IMG/VR virus record: IMGVR_UViG_3300029641_000003
Source of the DNA: a virus
Taxonomy: Duplodnaviria > Heunggongvirae > Uroviricota > Caudoviricetes
DNA length: 64,000 nucleotides
Reading direction: 5' to 3' (one strand)
Shown here: positions 1-38,973 of the stretch, piece by piece
How positions within the stretch are numbered: position 1 is the stretch's first letter
Layout of the letters: each line of letters opens with the position of its first letter
The notes under the pieces: model-generated
Databases searched by the model: none
What the model saw: the letters and a program-made list of their open reading frames with translations, nothing else
What the model was told of the DNA's origin: nothing
Position numbers and translations under genes: made by a program

Positions 1-2
1 CA

Positions 3-482
3 GAGCAACTGGCGGAGCGTAACGCTGAGTATGTAACGGAAATTTCCCGACTTGAGAAAGAGCGCGCGGCGCTGGCGGCGGAGAATGCACTTGCTCGTAA
101 AGCTGTTCAGGCATTCTGTGAGGTTGTTGGCGACAACACTGAGATTATCTCCGAGTTGGTTGGGCAAGATGACGTTCTGGTTATTTTGAAGGCCATGAAG
201 GCAACAGGAAATATGTCAGCCACCGATGCTTTCCTGGCTGAAATACGTGCGGAGGCACGCAACGAGGGGATTAACTACACCGCAAGCCGTCTTGCTGCTG
301 CGTTCAATCACGGATTTATCAATAAGTCTTTGCGTGAAGTTTTCGACGTTACACGCATGATTTTGTCAGCGAAAGAAGAGTTGGCTAATGAACCGCATCC
401 GATTGATGGCCTGTCTGGTGAATATGCGGAGAAATCCCTTGAAGAATGGGCGGAACAGCTTCGTAAAGGAGTCATCCAGTGA
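3..482 (+). CDS. hypothetical protein, 5'-truncated at window edge
   Basis: Frame 3 is open from base 3 into ORF 156..482; stop overlaps GTG start of next gene (GTGA). Confidence 0.5.
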   Translation, partial: EQLAERNAEYVTEISRLEKERAALAAENALARKAVQAFCEVVGDNTEIISELVGQDDVLVILKAMKATGNMSATDAFLAEIRAEARNEGINYTASRLAAAFNHGFINKSLREVFDVTRMILSAKEELANEPHPIDGLSGEYAEKSLEEWAEQLRKGVIQ

Positions 483-1309
483 GCAAGATTGACTATCAGG
501 CACTGCGTGAGGCGGCAGAGCGTGCAATTCCGGCAATGGAACGCCTGTTAATGTTGCCAGTTGATGATGATCTGATAAGCGAGCAGGAACTTAAAGATAG
601 CGGTGTTGATATTGATGCGCTCAACGCCTTCAAAATTCTGGCCGGACCAGAAACCGTGATGGCGCTACTGGATGAACGGGAAAGAAACCAGCAATACATC
701 AAATCTCGCGACCAGGAGAACGAGGATATTGCGCTAACGGTAGGGAAGCTGTTAATCGAAAACGGTCAGCTTGTTGCCGATACGCTACGCCACTTAGCTG
801 ATAACGAAATCGACTCTGATTATTTTGCTATCACCTCAACTAATGAGAACGGTACTGAAATTGATCATGAGATGTCTATTACCGATTACGCACTGCAAGC
901 TGCCGGAACTGTAGACGAATTGGTTGCGGCGCTGGAAGCCGCAAAATCAAAACTCAACGAGCAGCGTGAGTATTACGAGGGCGTTATCTCGGATGGAAGT
1001 AAGCGCATTGCAGAACTGGAAGCACGGGAAATAAAACCAGCCAAAGGTGAAGTTCTGGTCGTTGTATCTGGTTTTACTGGTTGCGGAAAAAGCGCCATTG
1101 CCGGGGAAATAGAAATCGCGATGAAGGCTATTGGTGTACCGGTTCAGTGGACTAATGGCGATGCGGAAAAGCGCATGACAGGAGCTGACTGGCTGACAGC
1201 GATTGAGATGTACAAACCAACAGTGCGCATCGTGGAAGTTAATGTGCCACGCGCCCCTGGCATTCGCATCAAAGGAGACGCAGGAGAACAAAACGATGAA
1301 AAACCGTAA
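479..1309 (+). CDS. hypothetical protein with C-terminal P-loop-like motif (GFTGCGKS)
   Basis: 276-aa ORF, GTG start with AAGGAG RBS 8 nt upstream; Walker-A-like GxxGxGKS near C-terminus. Confidence 0.55.
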   Translation: MSKIDYQALREAAERAIPAMERLLMLPVDDDLISEQELKDSGVDIDALNAFKILAGPETVMALLDERERNQQYIKSRDQENEDIALTVGKLLIENGQLVADTLRHLADNEIDSDYFAITSTNENGTEIDHEMSITDYALQAAGTVDELVAALEAAKSKLNEQREYYEGVISDGSKRIAELEAREIKPAKGEVLVVVSGFTGCGKSAIAGEIEIAMKAIGVPVQWTNGDAEKRMTGADWLTAIEMYKPTVRIVEVNVPRAPGIRIKGDAGEQNDEKP

Positions 1310-1535
1310 AGCAAAATTACTTCTTTTATCGCGTTCGACGGGGTACGAGAAGCTACCAATCAGCAATCACAAACGGGCGGTGATCGGCATGTTTGGTAGG
1401 GTGGTATTCGCATTTAACTATAAACCCACCGCGTCGCGGAACAGACGAGAGAAGGGGTACGCAGTGCGATGAAAAACCGTAAGGCAAAGATGCTGATAGC
1501 AAAGCCCGGGCAGCGTATCCGTATCTCAAATCGGC

Positions 1536-2117
1536 TTGTTATTTACTATAGATATCTGGGTTTTAGGGGGTGTTCCTCTATTCGTTTTTACGGTGTCTGG
1601 CGGAGCAGAAGCGCGGCGCAAAACCGCTGGAAAAACCACTTGCGCACTAAAGGAGAGTGAGGTGCCTACACTATTCAGGAAAAACTATCCGCGAAAGAGT
1701 AGAGCAATAGAATTGCTGTTTATCATTCTGTTTTTCGTGTTGCTGATACCAATAGCCTCAATATTAGTGACTGTTCTAATGGGGAGAGTATTTGAACCGT
1801 TAGTTGAACTGTATATCGATATAGTGTGGACCCCATTCAGGAAGCTACACAATAAAATTAACCCACATAAGGAAACAGATATGGCAACTTTGACAAAAGA
1901 AGATCGTTTTACCAAAAAACAAATCGCCGAGGCAAAAATCCTCGATAACAACGGAACCTACTTCATCAACGGCTCCATTCTTCCAGTTTATATCAATGAA
2001 GATGGAGACACTTACCTTATTGAAGAGTACGAAAAAGGCGAGCCGAGCGAACACCTCATTAAAGATTTGTTCGCGGATGGCGTTATTGTTGCTGTTAATC
2101 CGATTGGCTACAACTAA
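1536..2117 (+). CDS. hypothetical protein; true start probably ATG at 1881
   Basis: Track ORF starts at TTG; in-frame ATG at 1881 has an AGGA RBS; N-terminal part is hydrophobic. Confidence 0.4.
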   Translation: MLFTIDIWVLGGVPLFVFTVSGGAEARRKTAGKTTCALKESEVPTLFRKNYPRKSRAIELLFIILFFVLLIPIASILVTVLMGRVFEPLVELYIDIVWTPFRKLHNKINPHKETDMATLTKEDRFTKKQIAEAKILDNNGTYFINGSILPVYINEDGDTYLIEEYEKGEPSEHLIKDLFADGVIVAVNPIGYN

Positions 2118-2127
2118 AGCATAAATT

Positions 2128-2640
2128 ATGACCAGTATTACCAGAGAACAGGCCAAGAAAATTATTGAAGCTGCCGATGAGGTTATTAGTGCGCTTGCCG
2201 GAACTAACGAGGATGTTCACCCTGGTAGCGATAACATGCTACGTCTGTGGGATGACCTGAATGACCGTTACGCGCCGCCGGAAGTTGTGCGTGAGCTGGC
2301 GCGTATCGTGCTGGCATCGCTGGAAGCGGAGCCTGTAGCGTGGCGATATCGCTACGTGAAAAAAGGCGTTACGGACTCTCAGGGGGAGCCGTGGGTTGGT
2401 GACTGGAAATATGTACCGACAAAAGAGGATTGCAACGACAGGCCGAGCTATGAGATTCAGGCCTTATTCACTGCCCCGCCAGTCCCGGTGACATCAGAAG
2501 GACTGGTTAAAGCCGTGCGTTTCTATGAACAAGTTAAGCGTGAAAATCCGCCAGTCGAAACCGGAGCATGGAAAGACGCGGTTGACTGGGTGCTCAAAGA
2601 GGCCTGCCAGGTTGTAAACACTGGCATCAAAGGAGACTGA
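2128..2640 (+). CDS. hypothetical protein
   Basis: 170-aa ORF; shares an ASLEAEPV ... TxPPxP segment with ORF 2848..3813. Confidence 0.55.
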   Translation: MTSITREQAKKIIEAADEVISALAGTNEDVHPGSDNMLRLWDDLNDRYAPPEVVRELARIVLASLEAEPVAWRYRYVKKGVTDSQGEPWVGDWKYVPTKEDCNDRPSYEIQALFTAPPVPVTSEGLVKAVRFYEQVKRENPPVETGAWKDAVDWVLKEACQVVNTGIKGD

Positions 2641-2641
2641 T

Positions 2642-2851
2642 ATGGCTATTGCCGCAAGTTACACCATGCATCTCTATTGTGATTGCCTCCAGTGTACAGA
2701 TGGCAAATATAAGTCGCCAGACTTCGGTGAGTATATCGGTACGTCATGGGCTGGCTGTGCAAAAGAGGCGCGCAAGGATGGCTGGCGAATAAGCAAAGAC
2801 AAAACGCGTGCTTTTGCGCCCGGGCATAAAGTTTTGAGGATTAACAAATGA
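2642..2851 (+). CDS. small Cys-rich protein, possible zinc-binding
   Basis: 69 aa with CDCLQC and a further Cys; tightly packed between neighbours with overlapping stop/start. Confidence 0.4.
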   Translation: MAIAASYTMHLYCDCLQCTDGKYKSPDFGEYIGTSWAGCAKEARKDGWRISKDKTRAFAPGHKVLRINK

Positions 2852-3813
2852 CCACTTTAACCGACAAAGAACTGATTAAAGAAATCAAAGAGCGCATAGG
2901 CAGTCTGGACGTGCGAGACAATATTGAGCGCCGTGCTTATGAAATTGCTCTGGCATCGCTGGAGGCAGAGCCTGTTCTGTATCAGTCCTGCACTCGCCCC
3001 ACCTGGAATAGCGGTGTTCCGTGGACGGAATGGAAAGAACGAAGTCGTGAGTGCTACGAAGACGATTTGCGCTTTACAGACACGCCTGACCATGCCGGTT
3101 GGATATACAAATGTCGAAAACTATATACCACTCCGCCAGCGCCGATAGCGTTAGAGGCCATTGAAAACGCAATTGAATACATCCGCAGTATCGCTTTTCA
3201 CATCAATGAAGACGATTACCACGGCAAGCATATTGCGTATTTCATGCGACAAGCATTGGCCTGGCTGGAAGGGCATTCATGCAGCGACGACAGACTGGGT
3301 AAAGCCGAGAATCAAACAGTACACGGCAACCAGGCTGCCGAATCCAATCGCGGTAATGAGTGGACCGGCAATCCTGATATTGATAACGCCATCATCATGC
3401 TCGATCGCATAGATACGCTGGAAAGTTGCGATGATGACCGTATTGAGGCGGTTAAGACTGTTTTGCGTAGACTGGCAGGCAACTCTCCGGTAATTCCGGA
3501 TGGTTTATCCACGGTATGCGCTGAGGCTTATCAGGTTGTAGGAGTTATGGCAGATGCGCTTGGTGTATTCGGTGATGCAGCAGTACAGAAAGTTCTGGAT
3601 AACCTGTCACAGCAAAAACTTGTTCACAGAGATGTGCTGCCGTTCTCGCTTCCGGTAACTCCGGATGGTTGGGTTATGGTTCCTAAACAGGTAACGCCGG
3701 AAATCAGCAACGCGATAAACGTTGTGGGTCAACGCTGTACATGCGGAAATTGCTCTCAGCGGTTGTGGGATTTATTACTCGACGCCACACAGCAAGGAGT
3801 TAACCGTGGCTAA
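2848..3813 (+). CDS. hypothetical protein
   Basis: 321-aa ORF, start overlaps upstream stop; N-terminal region paralogous to 2128..2640. Confidence 0.55.
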   Translation: MTTLTDKELIKEIKERIGSLDVRDNIERRAYEIALASLEAEPVLYQSCTRPTWNSGVPWTEWKERSRECYEDDLRFTDTPDHAGWIYKCRKLYTTPPAPIALEAIENAIEYIRSIAFHINEDDYHGKHIAYFMRQALAWLEGHSCSDDRLGKAENQTVHGNQAAESNRGNEWTGNPDIDNAIIMLDRIDTLESCDDDRIEAVKTVLRRLAGNSPVIPDGLSTVCAEAYQVVGVMADALGVFGDAAVQKVLDNLSQQKLVHRDVLPFSLPVTPDGWVMVPKQVTPEISNAINVVGQRCTCGNCSQRLWDLLLDATQQGVNRG

Positions 3814-3989
3814 CCTGCAACTTATCCTCAAAGGTGAAAAGATTTGAGGATTCGCATCATTAATAACACCGACAAACATCCGGATGATTATTTGGATTGC
3901 TCGTTAGCAGAGCGCGTGGAATTGATATAAGAGAATCTCCGCGCATCGGCAACACACAGCTAAATATGTTCGCAATAAAGGGTAAATCA

Positions 3990-4391
3990 ATGGCTAAATT
4001 TCGGAGAACTATTATTTTTCTGGCAATGTTATCTGCCTGCCATTTATCACATGCATCGGTTATTGTTGCAACCGCCGCAACAACGGCAGCAATTAGCGCC
4101 TCAGCCGCAAGCGAGCAGGAGCAACGCACTGCAATCAATGCATCCGCAAATACTACCACTGTAGCAGTCACGCAAGATAAGCCAAATATAGGCTTTGTTA
4201 CTTGCGGAAAACGGTATGGAGAGACGGTCGGTTCTCTTGGTTGCGCAGTGTGGCATGACGAACGAGCAGAAATTCCGTGGAAATCATGGCCTGGTTACAT
4301 TCTTGGCGAAAAGATACCCACCAGCTATGAAGTAAATGCTATTTCGTTCGATCAATATAACAGAGTCGCAACGGTCTACTTTTCTTATTAA
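3990..4391 (+). CDS. putative lipoprotein
   Basis: ATG at 3990; signal peptide with lipobox-like LSAC (MAKFRRTIIFLAMLSAC). Confidence 0.5.
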   Translation: MAKFRRTIIFLAMLSACHLSHASVIVATAATTAAISASAASEQEQRTAINASANTTTVAVTQDKPNIGFVTCGKRYGETVGSLGCAVWHDERAEIPWKSWPGYILGEKIPTSYEVNAISFDQYNRVATVYFSY

Positions 4392-4397
4392 CACGGA

Positions 4398-4697
4398 GTG
4401 ATTATGTGGCGCGGTAATAATCATGGCAGAAGCCATATGATACTTACCGAATATAAGCTAGACCACAAAACCAATAAATCGCGCTCAGTATATTTGCTCC
4501 GGCACAATAGCCGCGTAAGGAATACCGTGCTGGAGCAAAATCTGACCGTTGAAATGGATAATTTCGGGAATTTCAAGCCAACAATATCGCTTGATGATTT
4601 CCCTCGTGGTTTAAGCGAAAGAGAAGCAATGCTGAAGTTAGCAGAATGGCTACAAAGATTGAGCATTGTTATTGAAGATAACTGGAGTCAACCATAA
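4398..4697 (+). CDS. hypothetical protein
   Basis: 99-aa ORF; stop overlaps ATG of a downstream small ORF. Confidence 0.4.
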   Translation: MIMWRGNNHGRSHMILTEYKLDHKTNKSRSVYLLRHNSRVRNTVLEQNLTVEMDNFGNFKPTISLDDFPRGLSEREAMLKLAEWLQRLSIVIEDNWSQP

Positions 4698-4873
4698 TGA
4701 AAAACAGAAAGAAATTTTGGATTACTTTTTTGTTTGTATGCCTTTGCGGTTTATTTGTTTTATTAGCTGGTGGTGTTAAATGGGGTACGGTGGGGTGTGG
4801 TTTTTGGAGTGGGCTTACTCTTTTCGCAGCTTGGCTTATCGCCAACTTTGAGTCAGGCGGAGGGTATTGGTAA
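4697..4873 (+). CDS. small membrane protein (58 aa), absent from ORF track
   Basis: Read by eye: MKNRKKFWITFLFVCLCGLFVLLAGGVKWGTVGCGFWSGLTLFAAWLIANFESGGGYW; two hydrophobic helices; ATG overlaps upstream TAA. Confidence 0.35.
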   Translation: MKNRKKFWITFLFVCLCGLFVLLAGGVKWGTVGCGFWSGLTLFAAWLIANFESGGGYW

Positions 4874-4952
4874 GTGGTCTTATTCCCCACTTCATAACGG
4901 ATATCACGCTCGTGATAACGGATATTCCAATTTTGATAACGGATAAGGCCAA

Positions 4953-5162
4953 ATGAAGCATTTTTTAAGGTTGGCATTTGTTCTGGCGCTATTTGCTCCT
5001 CAGGCTGCAATGGCTGGAGAACAGCAACATTGCACAAAAGAGAATGAACACCCTTTCATCGTTATTCAATGTGATGACGGAACGGTGACAGTGGTTAATG
5101 TAAGAAATGACCGTGTAGCTGTATGCCGTAAAGGCGAACCATGCAAGGAAATAAAACTATGA
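4953..5162 (+). CDS. small secreted Cys-containing protein
   Basis: 69 aa; N-terminal signal peptide ending AMA; four Cys in mature part. Confidence 0.4.
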   Translation: MKHFLRLAFVLALFAPQAAMAGEQQHCTKENEHPFIVIQCDDGTVTVVNVRNDRVAVCRKGEPCKEIKL

Positions 5163-5956
5163 CTAAAATCACTAAATTCCGCATATCAGAGATTATTGCA
5201 CGCATCGAAATGTATGGACACGGCGCTGGATACACGGCAGATGAGGTATTGGAGCTTGCCCAAATAGCGTTAGCAACCTGCAAAGACGGTGAGAGTATAA
5301 AGCTGATTGACTTGTTGGTGCAGGAGCTGCCAAAGCGTGGAGGGTGGCCTGATGATATGCTCGATTGTCGCATGGTTAGAGAGGACTGCTGTGAACCATC
5401 ATATGGTTTCTTTGCTTTTGGCTCTGATCCAGCGAAAAGCCCGTGTGGGCGCAATTTTTGCCTTGAGGTCAGGCTTCCGATAAGTAACCTTTATCGCGAG
5501 GAATACACGGAAATAATTTCGCGCAAACAATACGAAGAGGCTCTTGAAGCATCCAATAAGTTAAATTTTGAGCAATGGCTGGGGCAACAACACGAAAAAA
5601 TCGACCTGGACTGCGGTTGTGTGTCTACTGAAACATTCATGCACTGGCTGCGGGTAGCCTATGAATCTGGCAACCGTCTGGATACTCATCCACAAGAGGT
5701 GCCGAAGCCAAGAGTAAGCACAACTCTGGAAAGGAGCTATCTTGAAACTGCATTAAAGATTAAGGCAGGCCATACGCTAGGCGTCATTGATGCCATGTTG
5801 GTTCATGAAATGGCGAAGGCTTTACTACCAGAAATTCCCGCGAATACGCCTACGCAAGTATTGGCGCTAATGAACAAACACAATCTGCCCAGGGAAGCAT
5901 TCTGGTGCTTTGATCATGAACAGTGGAGATACTCATGCTATGAATGCCGGTATTAA
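5141..5956 (+). CDS. hypothetical protein
   Basis: 271-aa ORF overlapping the upstream gene end. Confidence 0.55.
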   Translation: MQGNKTMTKITKFRISEIIARIEMYGHGAGYTADEVLELAQIALATCKDGESIKLIDLLVQELPKRGGWPDDMLDCRMVREDCCEPSYGFFAFGSDPAKSPCGRNFCLEVRLPISNLYREEYTEIISRKQYEEALEASNKLNFEQWLGQQHEKIDLDCGCVSTETFMHWLRVAYESGNRLDTHPQEVPKPRVSTTLERSYLETALKIKAGHTLGVIDAMLVHEMAKALLPEIPANTPTQVLALMNKHNLPREAFWCFDHEQWRYSCYECRY

Positions 5957-7121: not shown

Positions 7122-7511
7122 ATGGGCTTCCCTTCTCCTGCGGCGGATTATGCAGAGAGCCGTATTTCTCTTGATCAGCAACTAATCAGACATCCTTCTG
7201 CGACCTACTTCATGCGAGCGGCAGACAGTCATCACCGTGAGGGAATATTGCAAGGTGCTTTGCTGGTGGTTGATTCCTCACTTACTCCGGTTGATGGTTC
7301 ACTGCTTATATGCGCTATGGAGGGTGAATATCGCATAAAGAGATACAGGAAGTATCCGCGCCAGCACCTGGAGGATTTAAGCACCGGGAAGAAAGAGGCG
7401 CTACCAGTGGATGACGATGGATACACGGGCAGTAATGCTGTTTTTGGTGTGATCACTCATGTCATCAATGATGCCCGAAGTGGGGAGTTTGATGATTGTC
7501 CGGTCATTTAA
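7122..7511 (+). CDS. humD: HumD, UmuD-like SOS mutagenesis protein
   Basis: 129 aa; LexA/UmuD-like fold pattern; SOS box upstream; P1 synteny. Confidence 0.85.
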   Translation: MGFPSPAADYAESRISLDQQLIRHPSATYFMRAADSHHREGILQGALLVVDSSLTPVDGSLLICAMEGEYRIKRYRKYPRQHLEDLSTGKKEALPVDDDGYTGSNAVFGVITHVINDARSGEFDDCPVI

Positions 7512-7583
7512 GCTGCAAAGTGCTGGTGCTTTATGCCTGTGAAGTTTATAATTGTGTACACATAACGAGTACACGAGGTGTTT

Positions 7584-19454: not shown

Positions 19455-19530
19455 TGGTGGCCCCTACCGGACTTGAACCGGTGACCGTGCGATTATGAGT
19501 CGCCCGCTCTAACCACTGAGCTAAAGGGCC
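19455..19530 (-). tRNA. tRNA with CAU anticodon (Ile2-like, or Met)
   Basis: Reverse complement GGCCCTTTAGCTCAGTGGTTAGAGCGGGCGACTCATAATCGCACGGTCACCGGTTCAAGTCCGGTAGGGGCCACCA folds as cloverleaf; resembles recalled E. coli ileX. Confidence 0.8.
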
Positions 19531-19539
19531 AGATTACTG

Positions 19540-19668
19540 TTAATTACGCTTACGCTTTTTGCCAGAACCGCGTAAGGCTTTTGCCGCTTGCTCTACCCCG
19601 TATGCAACCACCAGCAGAAACAATAATGTCCACTCCGGGTTTTTATCGGCAAACGCCCAAAAATTCAT
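19540..19668 (-). CDS. small protein (42 aa) with hydrophobic core and basic tail
   Basis: Read by eye: MNFWAFADKNPEWTLLFLLVVAYGVEQAAKALRGSGKKRKRN; ATG overlaps stop of the 77-aa gene upstream. Confidence 0.3.
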   Translation of the reverse strand: MNFWAFADKNPEWTLLFLLVVAYGVEQAAKALRGSGKKRKRN

Positions 19669-19901
19669 CACTTACAGCCACCTTGCATTTCCTCGGATAA
19701 TTCATTGACTTTAGTGCTCAATAAGTAATCAAAGTAAAGATAAAACACAAAAGTAACGATAGTGCTTAAAGTGTCTGAAATTGCGTATTTCAGCTCAGGA
19801 AGCATGACAAAGCAGACAAATAGCGGAAGAAATAACTGCACTATGCACAGACTCTCCTTCCACAACCATCTATATCTGAAGTCTGACAACAAAAACTCCA
19901 T
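19668..19901 (-). CDS. small membrane protein
   Basis: 77 aa with two hydrophobic helices. Confidence 0.4.
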   Translation of the reverse strand: MEFLLSDFRYRWLWKESLCIVQLFLPLFVCFVMLPELKYAISDTLSTIVTFVFYLYFDYLLSTKVNELSEEMQGGCK

Positions 19902-20026
19902 TGCTTGAAACTTTATTAGATTGCGGTGCCTGGTGCCTCCAGGTGACGTTAACCAGTTAACAATTAACGCCGGGATGTTTGACTTAACTATTAAGGAAAA
20001 TTGTTTTAACTGTTCCGCGTGCGCTT

Positions 20027-20059
20027 AGCCGCATTCACCGCAATGGTAAGAGCATTTGG
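20027..20059. repeat. tRNA-cluster repeat, copy B
   Basis: AGCCGCATTCACCGCAATGGTAAGAGCATTTGG; related copies near 19211, 20383 and inverted near 20465. Confidence 0.5.
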
Positions 20060-20149
20060 CTGGCTGGGCGGCGATGACGCCTGTACGCATTTGGTGATCC
20101 GGTTCTGCTTCCGGCATTCGCTTAATTAGCCAAATACTCTTAACGTTGC

Positions 20150-20236
20150 GCTGGCGGAGAGTAATGGAATCGAACCATCATCGCTTGCGCAATGGGACGG
20201 TTTTCAAGACCGCTTGAGCACCATGCTCCCTACTCT
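20150..20236 (-). tRNA. tRNA-Ser (UGA anticodon), long variable arm
   Basis: Acceptor stem GGAGAGT/ACTCTCC plus G-CCA; anticodon arm CGGTCTTGAAAACCG as in recalled E. coli tRNA-Ser; D-arm atypical. Confidence 0.6.
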
Positions 20237-20382
20237 CCAGTGATTGTGGTGGTCGGTACTGATCTCCGACTGCGCCTCTTTTTTTCATAGCCCATAAGGC
20301 CGGTCAGTGCGCTTGATGACTGAGGCATCGATATTTACTACGCCGCCTCGTTGCCATAGGGCGGACTTGCGCGCCAGCAACG

Positions 20383-20486
20383 CGCATTCACCACAACGGA
20401 AAGAGCATTTATGGCTCGCATCGCGGGAAGCGGGAAAAAACCCACGGTAGAGAGTCGAACTCTACAAATGCTCTTACCTGTTGTGT
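20383..20486. repeat. inverted pair of the tRNA-cluster repeat (copies C and D)
   Basis: CACCACAACGGAAAGAGCATTT ... AAATGCTCTTACCTGTTGTG flank a GTAGAGAGTCGAACTCTAC hairpin 3' of tRNA-Thr. Confidence 0.45.
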
Positions 20487-20562
20487 TGGTGCCGGTTAAC
20501 GGACTCGAACCGCTGACATCCTGCTTACAAGGCAGGCGCTCTACCAACTGAGCTAAACCGGC
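20487..20562 (-). tRNA. tRNA-Thr (UGU)
   Basis: Reverse complement GCCGGTTTAGCTCAGTTGGTAGAGCGCCTGCCTTGTAAGCAGGATGTCAGCGGTTCGAGTCCGTTAACCGGCACCA. Confidence 0.85.
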
Positions 20563-20564
20563 AT

Positions 20565-20639
20565 TGGCGATGGTGGATGGATTCGAACCACCGACCAGTT
20601 GGTTAACAGCCAACTGCTCTACCACTGAGCTACACCATC
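20565..20639 (-). tRNA. tRNA-Asn (GUU)
   Basis: Reverse complement ...GTTGGCTGTTAACCAAC...GGTTCGAATCC...CACCATCGCCA; abuts tRNA-Thr. Confidence 0.8.
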
Positions 20640-38541: not shown

Positions 38542-38973
38542 ATGTTTAACTATCCGGTAAAACTGGAGCGCGACGACAAAACCGGCGCGTATGTCGTATC
38601 ATGCCGCGACCTACCATTGTTTAATTCCGTGGGTGACTCAGTTGAAGAAGCGTTGCTTGAGGCTGGTTATGGATTGGTCGCAGCGGTTGCGATTGAGATT
38701 GAAGAACGCCGACCTGTTCCCACTGGTAGCGAGCCAAAAGAAGGTGAGTACGTTGTCTCTTTGCCAGTGCTACCAGCAATGAAGGCTGCACTCCACAACG
38801 CGATGATAGAAACCGGCACACGCAAAGCAGAGTTGGCGCGCAAACTCGGCAAAAATGGAACACAGATTGATCGGCTTCTCGACGTCGAACATTCATCGAA
38901 AGTTGAAACTGTCGAGCTGGCACTGCATCAACTGAATAAAAATATCGCCGTATCTGTCACACCAATGCGGTGA
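38542..38973 (+). CDS. hicB: HicB antitoxin
   Basis: 143 aa directly downstream of hicA; C-terminal HTH region. Confidence 0.8.
   Translation: MFNYPVKLERDDKTGAYVVSCRDLPLFNSVGDSVEEALLEAGYGLVAAVAIEIEERRPVPTGSEPKEGEYVVSLPVLPAMKAALHNAMIETGTRKAELARKLGKNGTQIDRLLDVEHSSKVETVELALHQLNKNIAVSVTPMR

Follow-up and report, generated by a model that had tools for sequence, protein, structure and literature searches.

Predicted envelope-protein genes in the accessory operon of a P1-like phage-plasmid assort as independent cassettes

Introduction

Do genes for envelope-targeted proteins that lie side by side on a phage genome form one dedicated system, or do they merely share a neighbourhood? The question is raised by positions 3990–5162 of a 64,000-nucleotide stretch of viral DNA (IMG/VR record IMGVR_UViG_3300029641_000003; hereafter the window), where the original prediction placed a lipobox lipoprotein, a 58-residue membrane protein and a secreted Cys-rich protein next to one another and read them as a superinfection-exclusion or receptor-masking cluster of a temperate phage.

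Results

Four constrained genes in the accessory operon of a P1-like phage-plasmid

The region is occupied by four plus-strand genes, here called A, B, C and D, which make up a 1.2-kb piece of a long plus-strand accessory operon. The features that can be placed on it are as follows.

3990–4391, + strand: gene A, a predicted 133-residue exported protein (phrog_8805), from the open reading frame, the sequence and a homologue alignment
3990–4055, + strand: putative signal peptide of A (residues 1–22), in agreement with the pattern rules
4038–4040, + strand: codon of Cys17 in the A lipobox LSAC (residues 14–17)
4185–4388, + strand: C-terminal domain of A (residues 66–133, 68 residues), from invariant columns in the homologue alignment
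4404–4697, + strand: gene B, a 97-residue protein (phrog_1258) with no signal, membrane or hydrophobic segment
4697–4873, + strand: gene C, a predicted 58-residue small membrane protein, from sequence and hydrophobicity
4953–5162, + strand: gene D, a 69-residue precursor (phrog_20764), from an alignment and an AlphaFold model
4953–5015, + strand: putative signal peptide of D (residues 1–21), with cleavage between AMA and GEQQHC

Positions 3800–5300 of the window are 99.9% identical to the 91.7-kb E. coli plasmid NZ_CP104667.1, and the remainder aligns with it collinearly but as a mosaic of about 94–99% identity. Annotation of this plasmid includes DarA/DarB-type genes, PacA, the lytic replication protein RepL, Ref, a Cre-like recombinase, two Icd/Rha loci, Phd/Doc, HumD, the theta-subunit gene hot, tail and baseplate genes, tRNAs, RepB and ParM. 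Because this gene set is annotated in so close a relative, the element is a P1-like phage-plasmid. The operon itself carries lambdoid-type accessory genes (Ea22-like, ClpX zinc finger, DUF4752, metallophosphoesterase, DUF968, ASCH and DUF551) and then runs on into hot, humD and phd/doc; gene A is placed between the DUF551/ASCH-type genes and hot/humD, and the tail-fibre, baseplate and tail genes lie tens of kilobases away from it.

All four genes are annotated by RefSeq in NZ_CP104667.1 as hypothetical proteins, C under the accession WP_157924453.1. Pairwise comparison with diverged copies gave dN/dS values of 0.06–0.3 across the four open reading frames (A, 0.11–0.14; B, 0.06–0.21; C, about 0.26; D, 0.09–0.18), with the single exception of one D comparison at 0.49 that is inflated by a swapped signal peptide. 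Judged by these ratios, A, B, C and D are real genes under purifying selection. The cytoplasmic gene B, which lies within the cluster, had gone unmentioned in the original prediction.

No consensus sigma-70 promoter was found on the plus strand between positions 2500 and 6500, and A overlaps the upstream ASCH gene in three related loci (L011, L013 and L014), so that the genes are apparently transcribed together with the rest of the long operon. The operon head of the related plasmid has a promoter-like site (TTGATT-17-GATACT) that is covered by a perfect palindrome, its arms 13 bp long, at 38636–38665 of L005. Such an operator-like arrangement suggests control of the operon by a repressor, in which case the genes may be silent in the prophage state, and this would argue against exclusion of the lysogen type. 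A search of the element for P1 C1 operators, from which repression in the lysogen might have been inferred, found none.

A and D are predicted to be exported proteins

Signal-peptide calls were made by a rule-based procedure together with hydrophobicity analysis. The protein encoded by gene A, which starts MAKFRRTIIFLAMLSAC... and falls into PHROG family 8805 (E 1.9e-45), has the N-terminal arrangement MAKFRR-TIIFLAM-LSAC, with K/R in the n-region, an h-region of 8 residues and Cys17 within a lipobox that matches both the pattern [LVI][ASTVI][GAS]C and a PROSITE PS51257-like rule. After residue 22, between SHA and S, there is an alternative signal-peptidase-I site. The lipoprotein of the original prediction can therefore be recognised at this locus; however, the lipobox Cys17 occurs in 29 of 76 A cluster representatives and is limited to the window clade and a sister clade of 85% identity. 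Sister P1-like variants have LSAS instead of LSAC, and the Mu-like, lambdoid, virulent-phage and more distant relatives carry signals of the SPase-I type (..TQQAQA before S, ..ANA before V). The signal itself is thus conserved across A orthologues and the lipobox Cys is not, and with the lipobox confined to the two closest clades it is, as far as sequence conservation can tell, Sec export rather than lipidation that defines the A family. Lipidation, if it occurs, would be a recent feature of this lineage. We have accordingly downgraded the lipoprotein call to a putative, lineage-specific one, while envelope targeting as predicted from the sequences was confirmed for A as well as for C and D.

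Alignment of 27 homologues places a variable Ala/Thr/Ser-rich linker in the middle part of A, followed by the C-terminal domain, in which a Cys72/Cys85 pair is invariant and a VYFxY motif is conserved at the C-terminus. The A family as a whole is probably a soluble or tethered periplasmic protein with one disulphide. An exhaustive search with the domain against 1.84 billion representatives returned only about 8 true clusters, all of them proteins of 109–134 residues with signal peptides, and no fusion of the domain to other domains; two long matches were rejected as repeat-protein noise. The AlphaFold model of A, at a pLDDT of 47.6, was too poor for a fold search. Homologues of A are found in the early region of Mu-like prophages beside GemA/Mor, in lambdoid-type ea regions, at another position in P1-like operons and in early gene blocks of the virulent phages Av-05, KW1E_UTAR and Klebsiella KLB16. 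Since relatives occur in virulent phages, the A family is not a lysogenic-conversion function as such and is not specific to temperate phages.

The secreted Cys-rich protein that had been predicted corresponds to gene D, which belongs to PHROG 20764/11462 (E 1.7e-40) and which, after removal of its putative signal peptide, would leave a mature part of 48 residues with four Cys, invariant in 13 homologues. Two unrelated types of signal peptide are found on the same mature domain among these homologues, both ending before GEQQHC, and the retention of one cleavage point behind two unrelated signals indicates selection for D export. There is no lipobox in D or in C. The AlphaFold model of D shows a five-strand beta meander with a pLDDT of about 84 in the mature part, for which two disulphides are predicted. 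Foldseek returned no fold match for the model in the PDB (best E 0.06, TM about 0.35), and in the BFVD only uncharacterised phage proteins, headed by one from Erwinia phage Ea35-70. Gene D is present in about 35 P1-like records and also, at about 78% nucleotide identity and without A, in about 75 conjugative plasmids of the IncI2 mcr-1 type, where it lies just upstream of two small genes of unknown function, VirB6, VirB5 and an EexN lipoprotein gene.

B and C overlap, and B persists where C is missing

Gene B, preceded by GGAG 5 nt upstream of its ATG, is a member of PHROG family 1258 (E 1.2e-48) and the only one of the four genes common to P1, RCS47 and SJ46-type elements. About 329 E. coli records, the majority of them P1-like plasmids, contain it, and in some 300 P1-like plasmids it stands alone. 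P1 variants, RCS47 and SJ46 have B but lack A, C and D, and in them the gene after B encodes a different membrane protein, which in RCS47 and SJ46 is a 124-residue product (phrog_2638) encoded 6 nt after B. Two RCS47 genes of 177 and 210 bp, equal in size to C and D, were rejected as their counterparts, as they encode unrelated proteins.

The 58-residue membrane protein of the original prediction held up as a genuine gene product that the open-reading-frame track had missed, although RefSeq has its gene annotated in the near-identical plasmid. The protein begins with MKNRKK, which is followed by one firm membrane helix at residues 7–25 (nt 4715–4771; Kyte-Doolittle 19-residue mean 2.6), and a second hydrophobic stretch at about residues 33–50 is marginal (maximum about 1.5). 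No PHROG matched C, and in Pfam there was only a sub-threshold hit to DUF5989 (16.6 bits against a cut-off of 27). Among 5,426 complete E. coli genomes, C was found in only 21 records.

The ATG of C overlaps the TAA of B by 1 nt (TAATG), which suggests that the two genes are translationally coupled, and C directly follows B wherever this was checked, namely in 5 of 5 C-bearing loci and in 9 of 10 window-type IMG/VR loci. Along with the membrane protein that takes the place after B in RCS47 and SJ46, this would be consistent with B and C forming a two-gene module, for example a membrane-active toxin, an abortive-infection effector or a lysis-timing effector together with its regulator, with A and D as separate cargo. 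We consider such a module unlikely, however, because B persists without C (in plasmid L012 A, B and D are present and C is absent), the C-terminal half of C is variable and loosely constrained, with frameshifted variants, and no PADLOC or toxin-antitoxin family was matched.

The four genes assort independently

Profile models of the four genes were run against 61 IMG/VR loci with an A homologue. Within 4 kb of A, a D-like gene lies in only 5 of the 48 non-window-type loci, and among the ten window-type loci it is present in six and missing from four (one of these, L036, is cut off by the contig end shortly after C). Nine Mu-like prophage loci have an A homologue of 53% identity next to an 83-residue protein with an N-terminal anchor. 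Comparison of this protein with D by hhalign gave a probability of 84% (E 8e-6) with all four Cys aligned, and both proteins match phrog_11462, which identifies the 83-residue protein, by sequence, as remotely homologous to D. The genes are arranged as A-x-D in E. coli and as D-A in Citrobacter. Pairing of A with D is therefore recurrent but far from obligate.

The nine Mu-like loci would favour a view in which A and the four-Cys protein D are a periplasmic pair that travels together, with B and C as unrelated passengers. The low frequency of D-like genes at other A loci and their absence from four window-type loci speak against such a pair, as do the IncI2 plasmids that carry D and lack A and the observation that elsewhere A most often has a cytoplasmic 'MKFSKF...' protein on its right-hand side; a travelling pair is thus rather improbable.

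Co-location of the three envelope-targeted products was then set against chance expectation. A crude hydrophobicity classifier flagged 17 of the 107 coding sequences of the related plasmid as envelope-targeted, and when the genes were shuffled, at least three flagged genes among four neighbours appeared somewhere in 61% of shuffles (P about 0.6). The presence of three envelope genes among four neighbours is therefore within chance, and co-location alone is no evidence of a system.

These results bear on the reading that was first proposed, in which A, C and D together constitute one superinfection-exclusion or receptor-masking system of a temperate phage. In its favour, three envelope-targeted products are encoded on one strand within 1.2 kb, the A-B-C-D block is intact in several IMG/VR contigs and in some complete E. 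coli genomes (at most 21 of 5,426, the bound being set by C, the rarest of the genes), and the P1 sim operon provides a precedent for a cluster of exported proteins. On the other hand, the components assort independently and their clustering is no more than chance would give; the cytoplasmic gene B, apparently coupled to C, is interleaved with them; receptor-binding genes are not adjacent; and profile searches detected no homology of A–D to Cor, Llp, Sim, Imm, Sp, SieA/B or gp15. A single system composed of A, C and D is hence unsupported by synteny, statistics or homology, and we regard it as decidedly improbable. What stands of the proposed cluster is the predicted envelope targeting of its three members, and the distribution of the genes shows that A, B, C and D are independent mosaic cassettes, not one dedicated system.

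Comparison with known systems

Searches of A–D against Pfam, NCBIfam and PADLOC gave no family above threshold (sub-threshold noise only, at E up to 0.1), and the flanking genes had no match among the PADLOC-DB models at E up to 0.1. The PHROGs matched by these genes at E up to 0.01 are families of unknown function, with no function-annotated PHROG among them, and membership in them gives no clue to mechanism. Sequence searches of the PDB with A, B and D found no relative of solved structure, and no paper on these genes emerged from a literature search.

In kind, the superimmunity operon of P1 comes nearest. Like simA-simB-simC, the genes studied here form a cluster of small genes in a P1-type phage and encode predicted exported products; in sim, all three products (SimA, SimB and SimC) have Sec-type signals. 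Sim is processed and periplasmic, and it blocks P1 infection after adsorption. The likeness does not extend to sequence, as P1 SimA/B/C showed no similarity to A–D (best blastp E 0.8) and no sim homologue was detected by tblastn in the window or the related plasmid (E up to 0.01). It does not extend to context or composition either: sim lies beside immI in P1, whereas A–D are part of an accessory operon upstream of hot, and Sim lacks a membrane-protein member such as C.

With Llp of T5 and Cor of phi80, N15 and T1, the A protein has in common that it is small, phage-encoded and equipped with a lipobox signal (LSAC). Unlike them, A has no profile match to a named family and the lipobox of its family is lineage-specific. 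The llp and cor genes adjoin receptor-binding or tail genes, and gene A does not. Loci of T5-like and T1-like A homologues were considered as llp/cor-type loci and rejected, their neighbours being early hypothetical genes, a methylase or a terminase. Homology, lipobox conservation and gene position all speak against a receptor mask of the Cor/Llp type.

The C protein shares with HK97 gp15 (YebO-like) and T4 Imm its very small size, a predicted inner-membrane location, a positively charged N-terminus and an origin in a phage accessory region. It differs from the YebO and Imm Pfam families in having no similarity to them, and from the small exclusion proteins gp15 and Imm in being restricted to about 21 E. 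coli plasmids and apparently coupled to a cytoplasmic gene. C resembles proteins of the Imm, gp15 and SieA type only in being a small membrane protein. D, for its part, is a small, predicted exported protein of a mobile element, as are the conjugative entry-exclusion proteins EexN and TrbK, and its IncI2 homologues are encoded three genes upstream of an annotated EexN lipoprotein, next to VirB6/VirB5. In contrast to EexN, D has no lipobox and no sequence similarity to it.

A further reading is that A, D or both are periplasmic inhibitors or modulators of cell-wall hydrolases or of other periplasmic enzymes in the manner of Ivy or Sp, which would protect the wall of the infected cell or block the tail lysozyme of a superinfecting phage. 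Both are small and, by prediction, periplasmic and disulphide-containing, and relatives of A lie in the early regions of virulent and Mu-like phages. A Cronobacter element, moreover, has an A homologue at a distance of 1.7 kb from a gene of the Ivy family and from one for another secreted protein. That proximity is a single, loosely linked case, however, and neither sequence nor fold similarity to Ivy, MliC, PliC or Sp was detected, so that we hold this role to be very unlikely.

A role of A as a spanin or in lysis was rejected on position and protein features. Annotation of the 8 kb or so that flank the locus to left and right includes no gene for a holin, an endolysin or a spanin, and A, with 133 residues and a globular Cys-bridged domain, is unlike a short Pro-rich o-spanin. 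Elsewhere in the related plasmid there is a candidate endolysin, a TIGR02594 family protein at record position 77005, and a pair of unannotated membrane proteins near 88.3–89.1 kb of the record, which is presumably the position of P1 lydA/lydB. The element also has a 3.8-kb gene for a tail protein with a transglycosylase.

Least probable of all is that the genes are lysogenic-conversion cargo of benefit to the host, for instance in serum resistance or adhesion as with lambda Bor and Lom, and unrelated to competition between phages: the frequency of these elements in clinical E. coli and the A lipobox in this lineage would suit such cargo, but A has relatives in strictly virulent phages, no match to a Bor, Lom or TraT family was obtained, and the genes are internal to the operon among early-type phage genes with no promoter of their own found.

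Discussion

In order to rationalise these observations, we separate the anatomy of the locus, for which the case is strong, from its function. Very probably the region consists of separate small genes, of which A and D encode exported proteins and C an inner-membrane protein, as their sequences predict. The account that we favour overall, with somewhat better than even confidence, is that of independent cassettes whose exported products take part in competition between mobile elements; the region is in any case ordinary phage accessory cargo.

On this favoured account of independent cassettes, the envelope products would be accessory factors in competition between mobile elements. A, predicted to be Sec-exported, has a lipobox in this lineage and may hence be lipidated and directed to the outer membrane (His at +2). 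Like P1 Sim or T4 Sp, A and D could intervene in the periplasm once adsorption has taken place, and C, like HK97 gp15 or T4 Imm, at the inner membrane, with the effect that entry of DNA from other phages or, in the case of D, from plasmids would be hindered. Superinfection exclusion by these genes is plausible by analogy, because the P1 sim operon encodes three proteins with Sec signals. An exclusion-type function of the envelope products, resting on that analogy, nevertheless remains tentative and falls well short of an even chance in our estimate, and the occurrence of A relatives in virulent phages and of D in conjugative plasmids fits other envelope roles equally well. Within the exclusion-type functions, masking of an outer-membrane receptor as by Cor or Llp is less likely than blocking of entry in the style of Sim, Sp or Imm.

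The D family, common to phages and IncI2 conjugative plasmids, is one mildly interesting thread. A bolder and very improbable extension is that D and its remote relatives in phrog_8391 and phrog_11462 make up a new family of periplasmic entry-blocking factors, common to P1-like and Mu-like phages, a jumbo Erwinia phage and IncI2 plasmids, and paired in some lineages with the exported protein A. If this were true, there would be a common exclusion currency across the phage and plasmid worlds. More generally, should any of the proteins block the entry of phage or plasmid DNA, it would represent a new and widely spread exclusion family on the P1-like phage-plasmids of clinical E. coli and, for D, on the mcr-1-spreading IncI2 plasmids as well, with a bearing on phage-therapy host range and on plasmid competition.

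Of more modest practical value is that the lipoprotein call for A has been corrected, that four open reading frames can be taken as real and constrained and that the seeming cluster turns out to be a mosaic of cassettes that move independently. In addition, three uncharacterised PHROG families can now be recommended for screening as exported proteins. Among clinical E. coli isolates, from urine as well as blood, elements of the type described here are common.

Relatives of D and A in other mobile elements

The family of D, the predicted exported protein with four cysteines, extends to conjugative plasmids. About 75 IncI2 plasmids of the mcr-1 type carry a D-family gene whose product shows 72% amino acid identity, and this gene lies directly upstream of two small unknown genes and the genes for VirB6, VirB5 and the entry-exclusion lipoprotein EexN. 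Mu-like prophages encode a protein of 83 aa (phrog_8391) that bears four cysteines and is anchored at its N-terminus; it is a remote homologue of D. A homologue of A, the other predicted exported protein, adjoins the phrog_8391 gene in these prophages, the order of the two differing between E. coli and Citrobacter.

D-family and phrog_8391 genes in the comparison loci
L019 4769-5020: D-family gene of NZ_CP018106.1, IncI2 plasmid pMR0716_mcr1
L016 6511-6762: 83-aa phrog_8391 gene, Mu-like prophage
L026 4643-4894: 83-aa phrog_8391 gene, Mu-like prophage
L021 about 3750-3990: 83-aa phrog_8391 gene, Mu-like prophage

Separately, a Cronobacter contig (L020 4001-6968) bears an Ivy-family (lysozyme inhibitor) gene 1.7 kb from an A homologue, and the same stretch encodes a second secreted protein of 102 aa.

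A possible recombination junction around C

Small basic ORFs starting MKNRKAK (phrog_1380) were repeatedly observed at module junctions beside A homologues; they occur in Mu-like, Av-05 and RCS47 genomes. The MKNRK start is shared by the N-terminus of C, the small membrane protein, and the protein P0092 is a phrog_1380-type ORF fused to the C-terminal part of D. Such a start and the P0092 fusion may mark a recombination junction.

Start of C, MKNRKAK-type ORFs and the alternative ORF
window 4697-4711: start of C
L016 5809-5988: MKNRKAK-type ORF
L002 5730-5939: MKNRKAK-type ORF
L007 1530-1891: MKNRKAK-type ORF
P0092: MKNRKAK-type ORF fused to the C-terminal part of D
window 4770-4946, + strand: alternative 58-aa ORF, overlapping the 3' end of C and filling the C-D gap

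Two database variants of C, P0095 and P0102, enter the frame of this alternative ORF by a frameshift.

Mosaic structure and relation to P1

Compared with its closest complete relative, the E. coli plasmid NZ_CP104667.1, the window is a mosaic. Its first 3.1 kb (1-3137) are unlike the plasmid and resemble RCS47 in carrying genes of the DUF551 type and 'MAIAASYTMHLYCDC' genes. At 7501-7547 it is missing a 640-bp segment that lies between humD and phd in the plasmid and codes there for a 140-aa membrane protein. Elsewhere the window holds a four-tRNA gene cluster:

window 19455-20639, - strand: tRNA genes (Met, Ser, Thr, Asn)

Neither P1 C1 operator sites nor a simABC homologue were found across the whole window and the related plasmid. 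The element uses RepB and ParM; P1 itself has the RepA/ParAB system. The element is a diverged relative of P1, not a P1 variant.

A perfect palindrome, TGTTAGAAAATCAA-AA-TTGATTTTCTAACA, is present in the related plasmid at L005 38636-38665, outside the window, in the gap that separates ref from the gene opening the accessory operon. The palindrome, found only once among 19 loci (L001-L019), overlaps a promoter-like site (TTGATT-17-GATACT) and is likely an operator.
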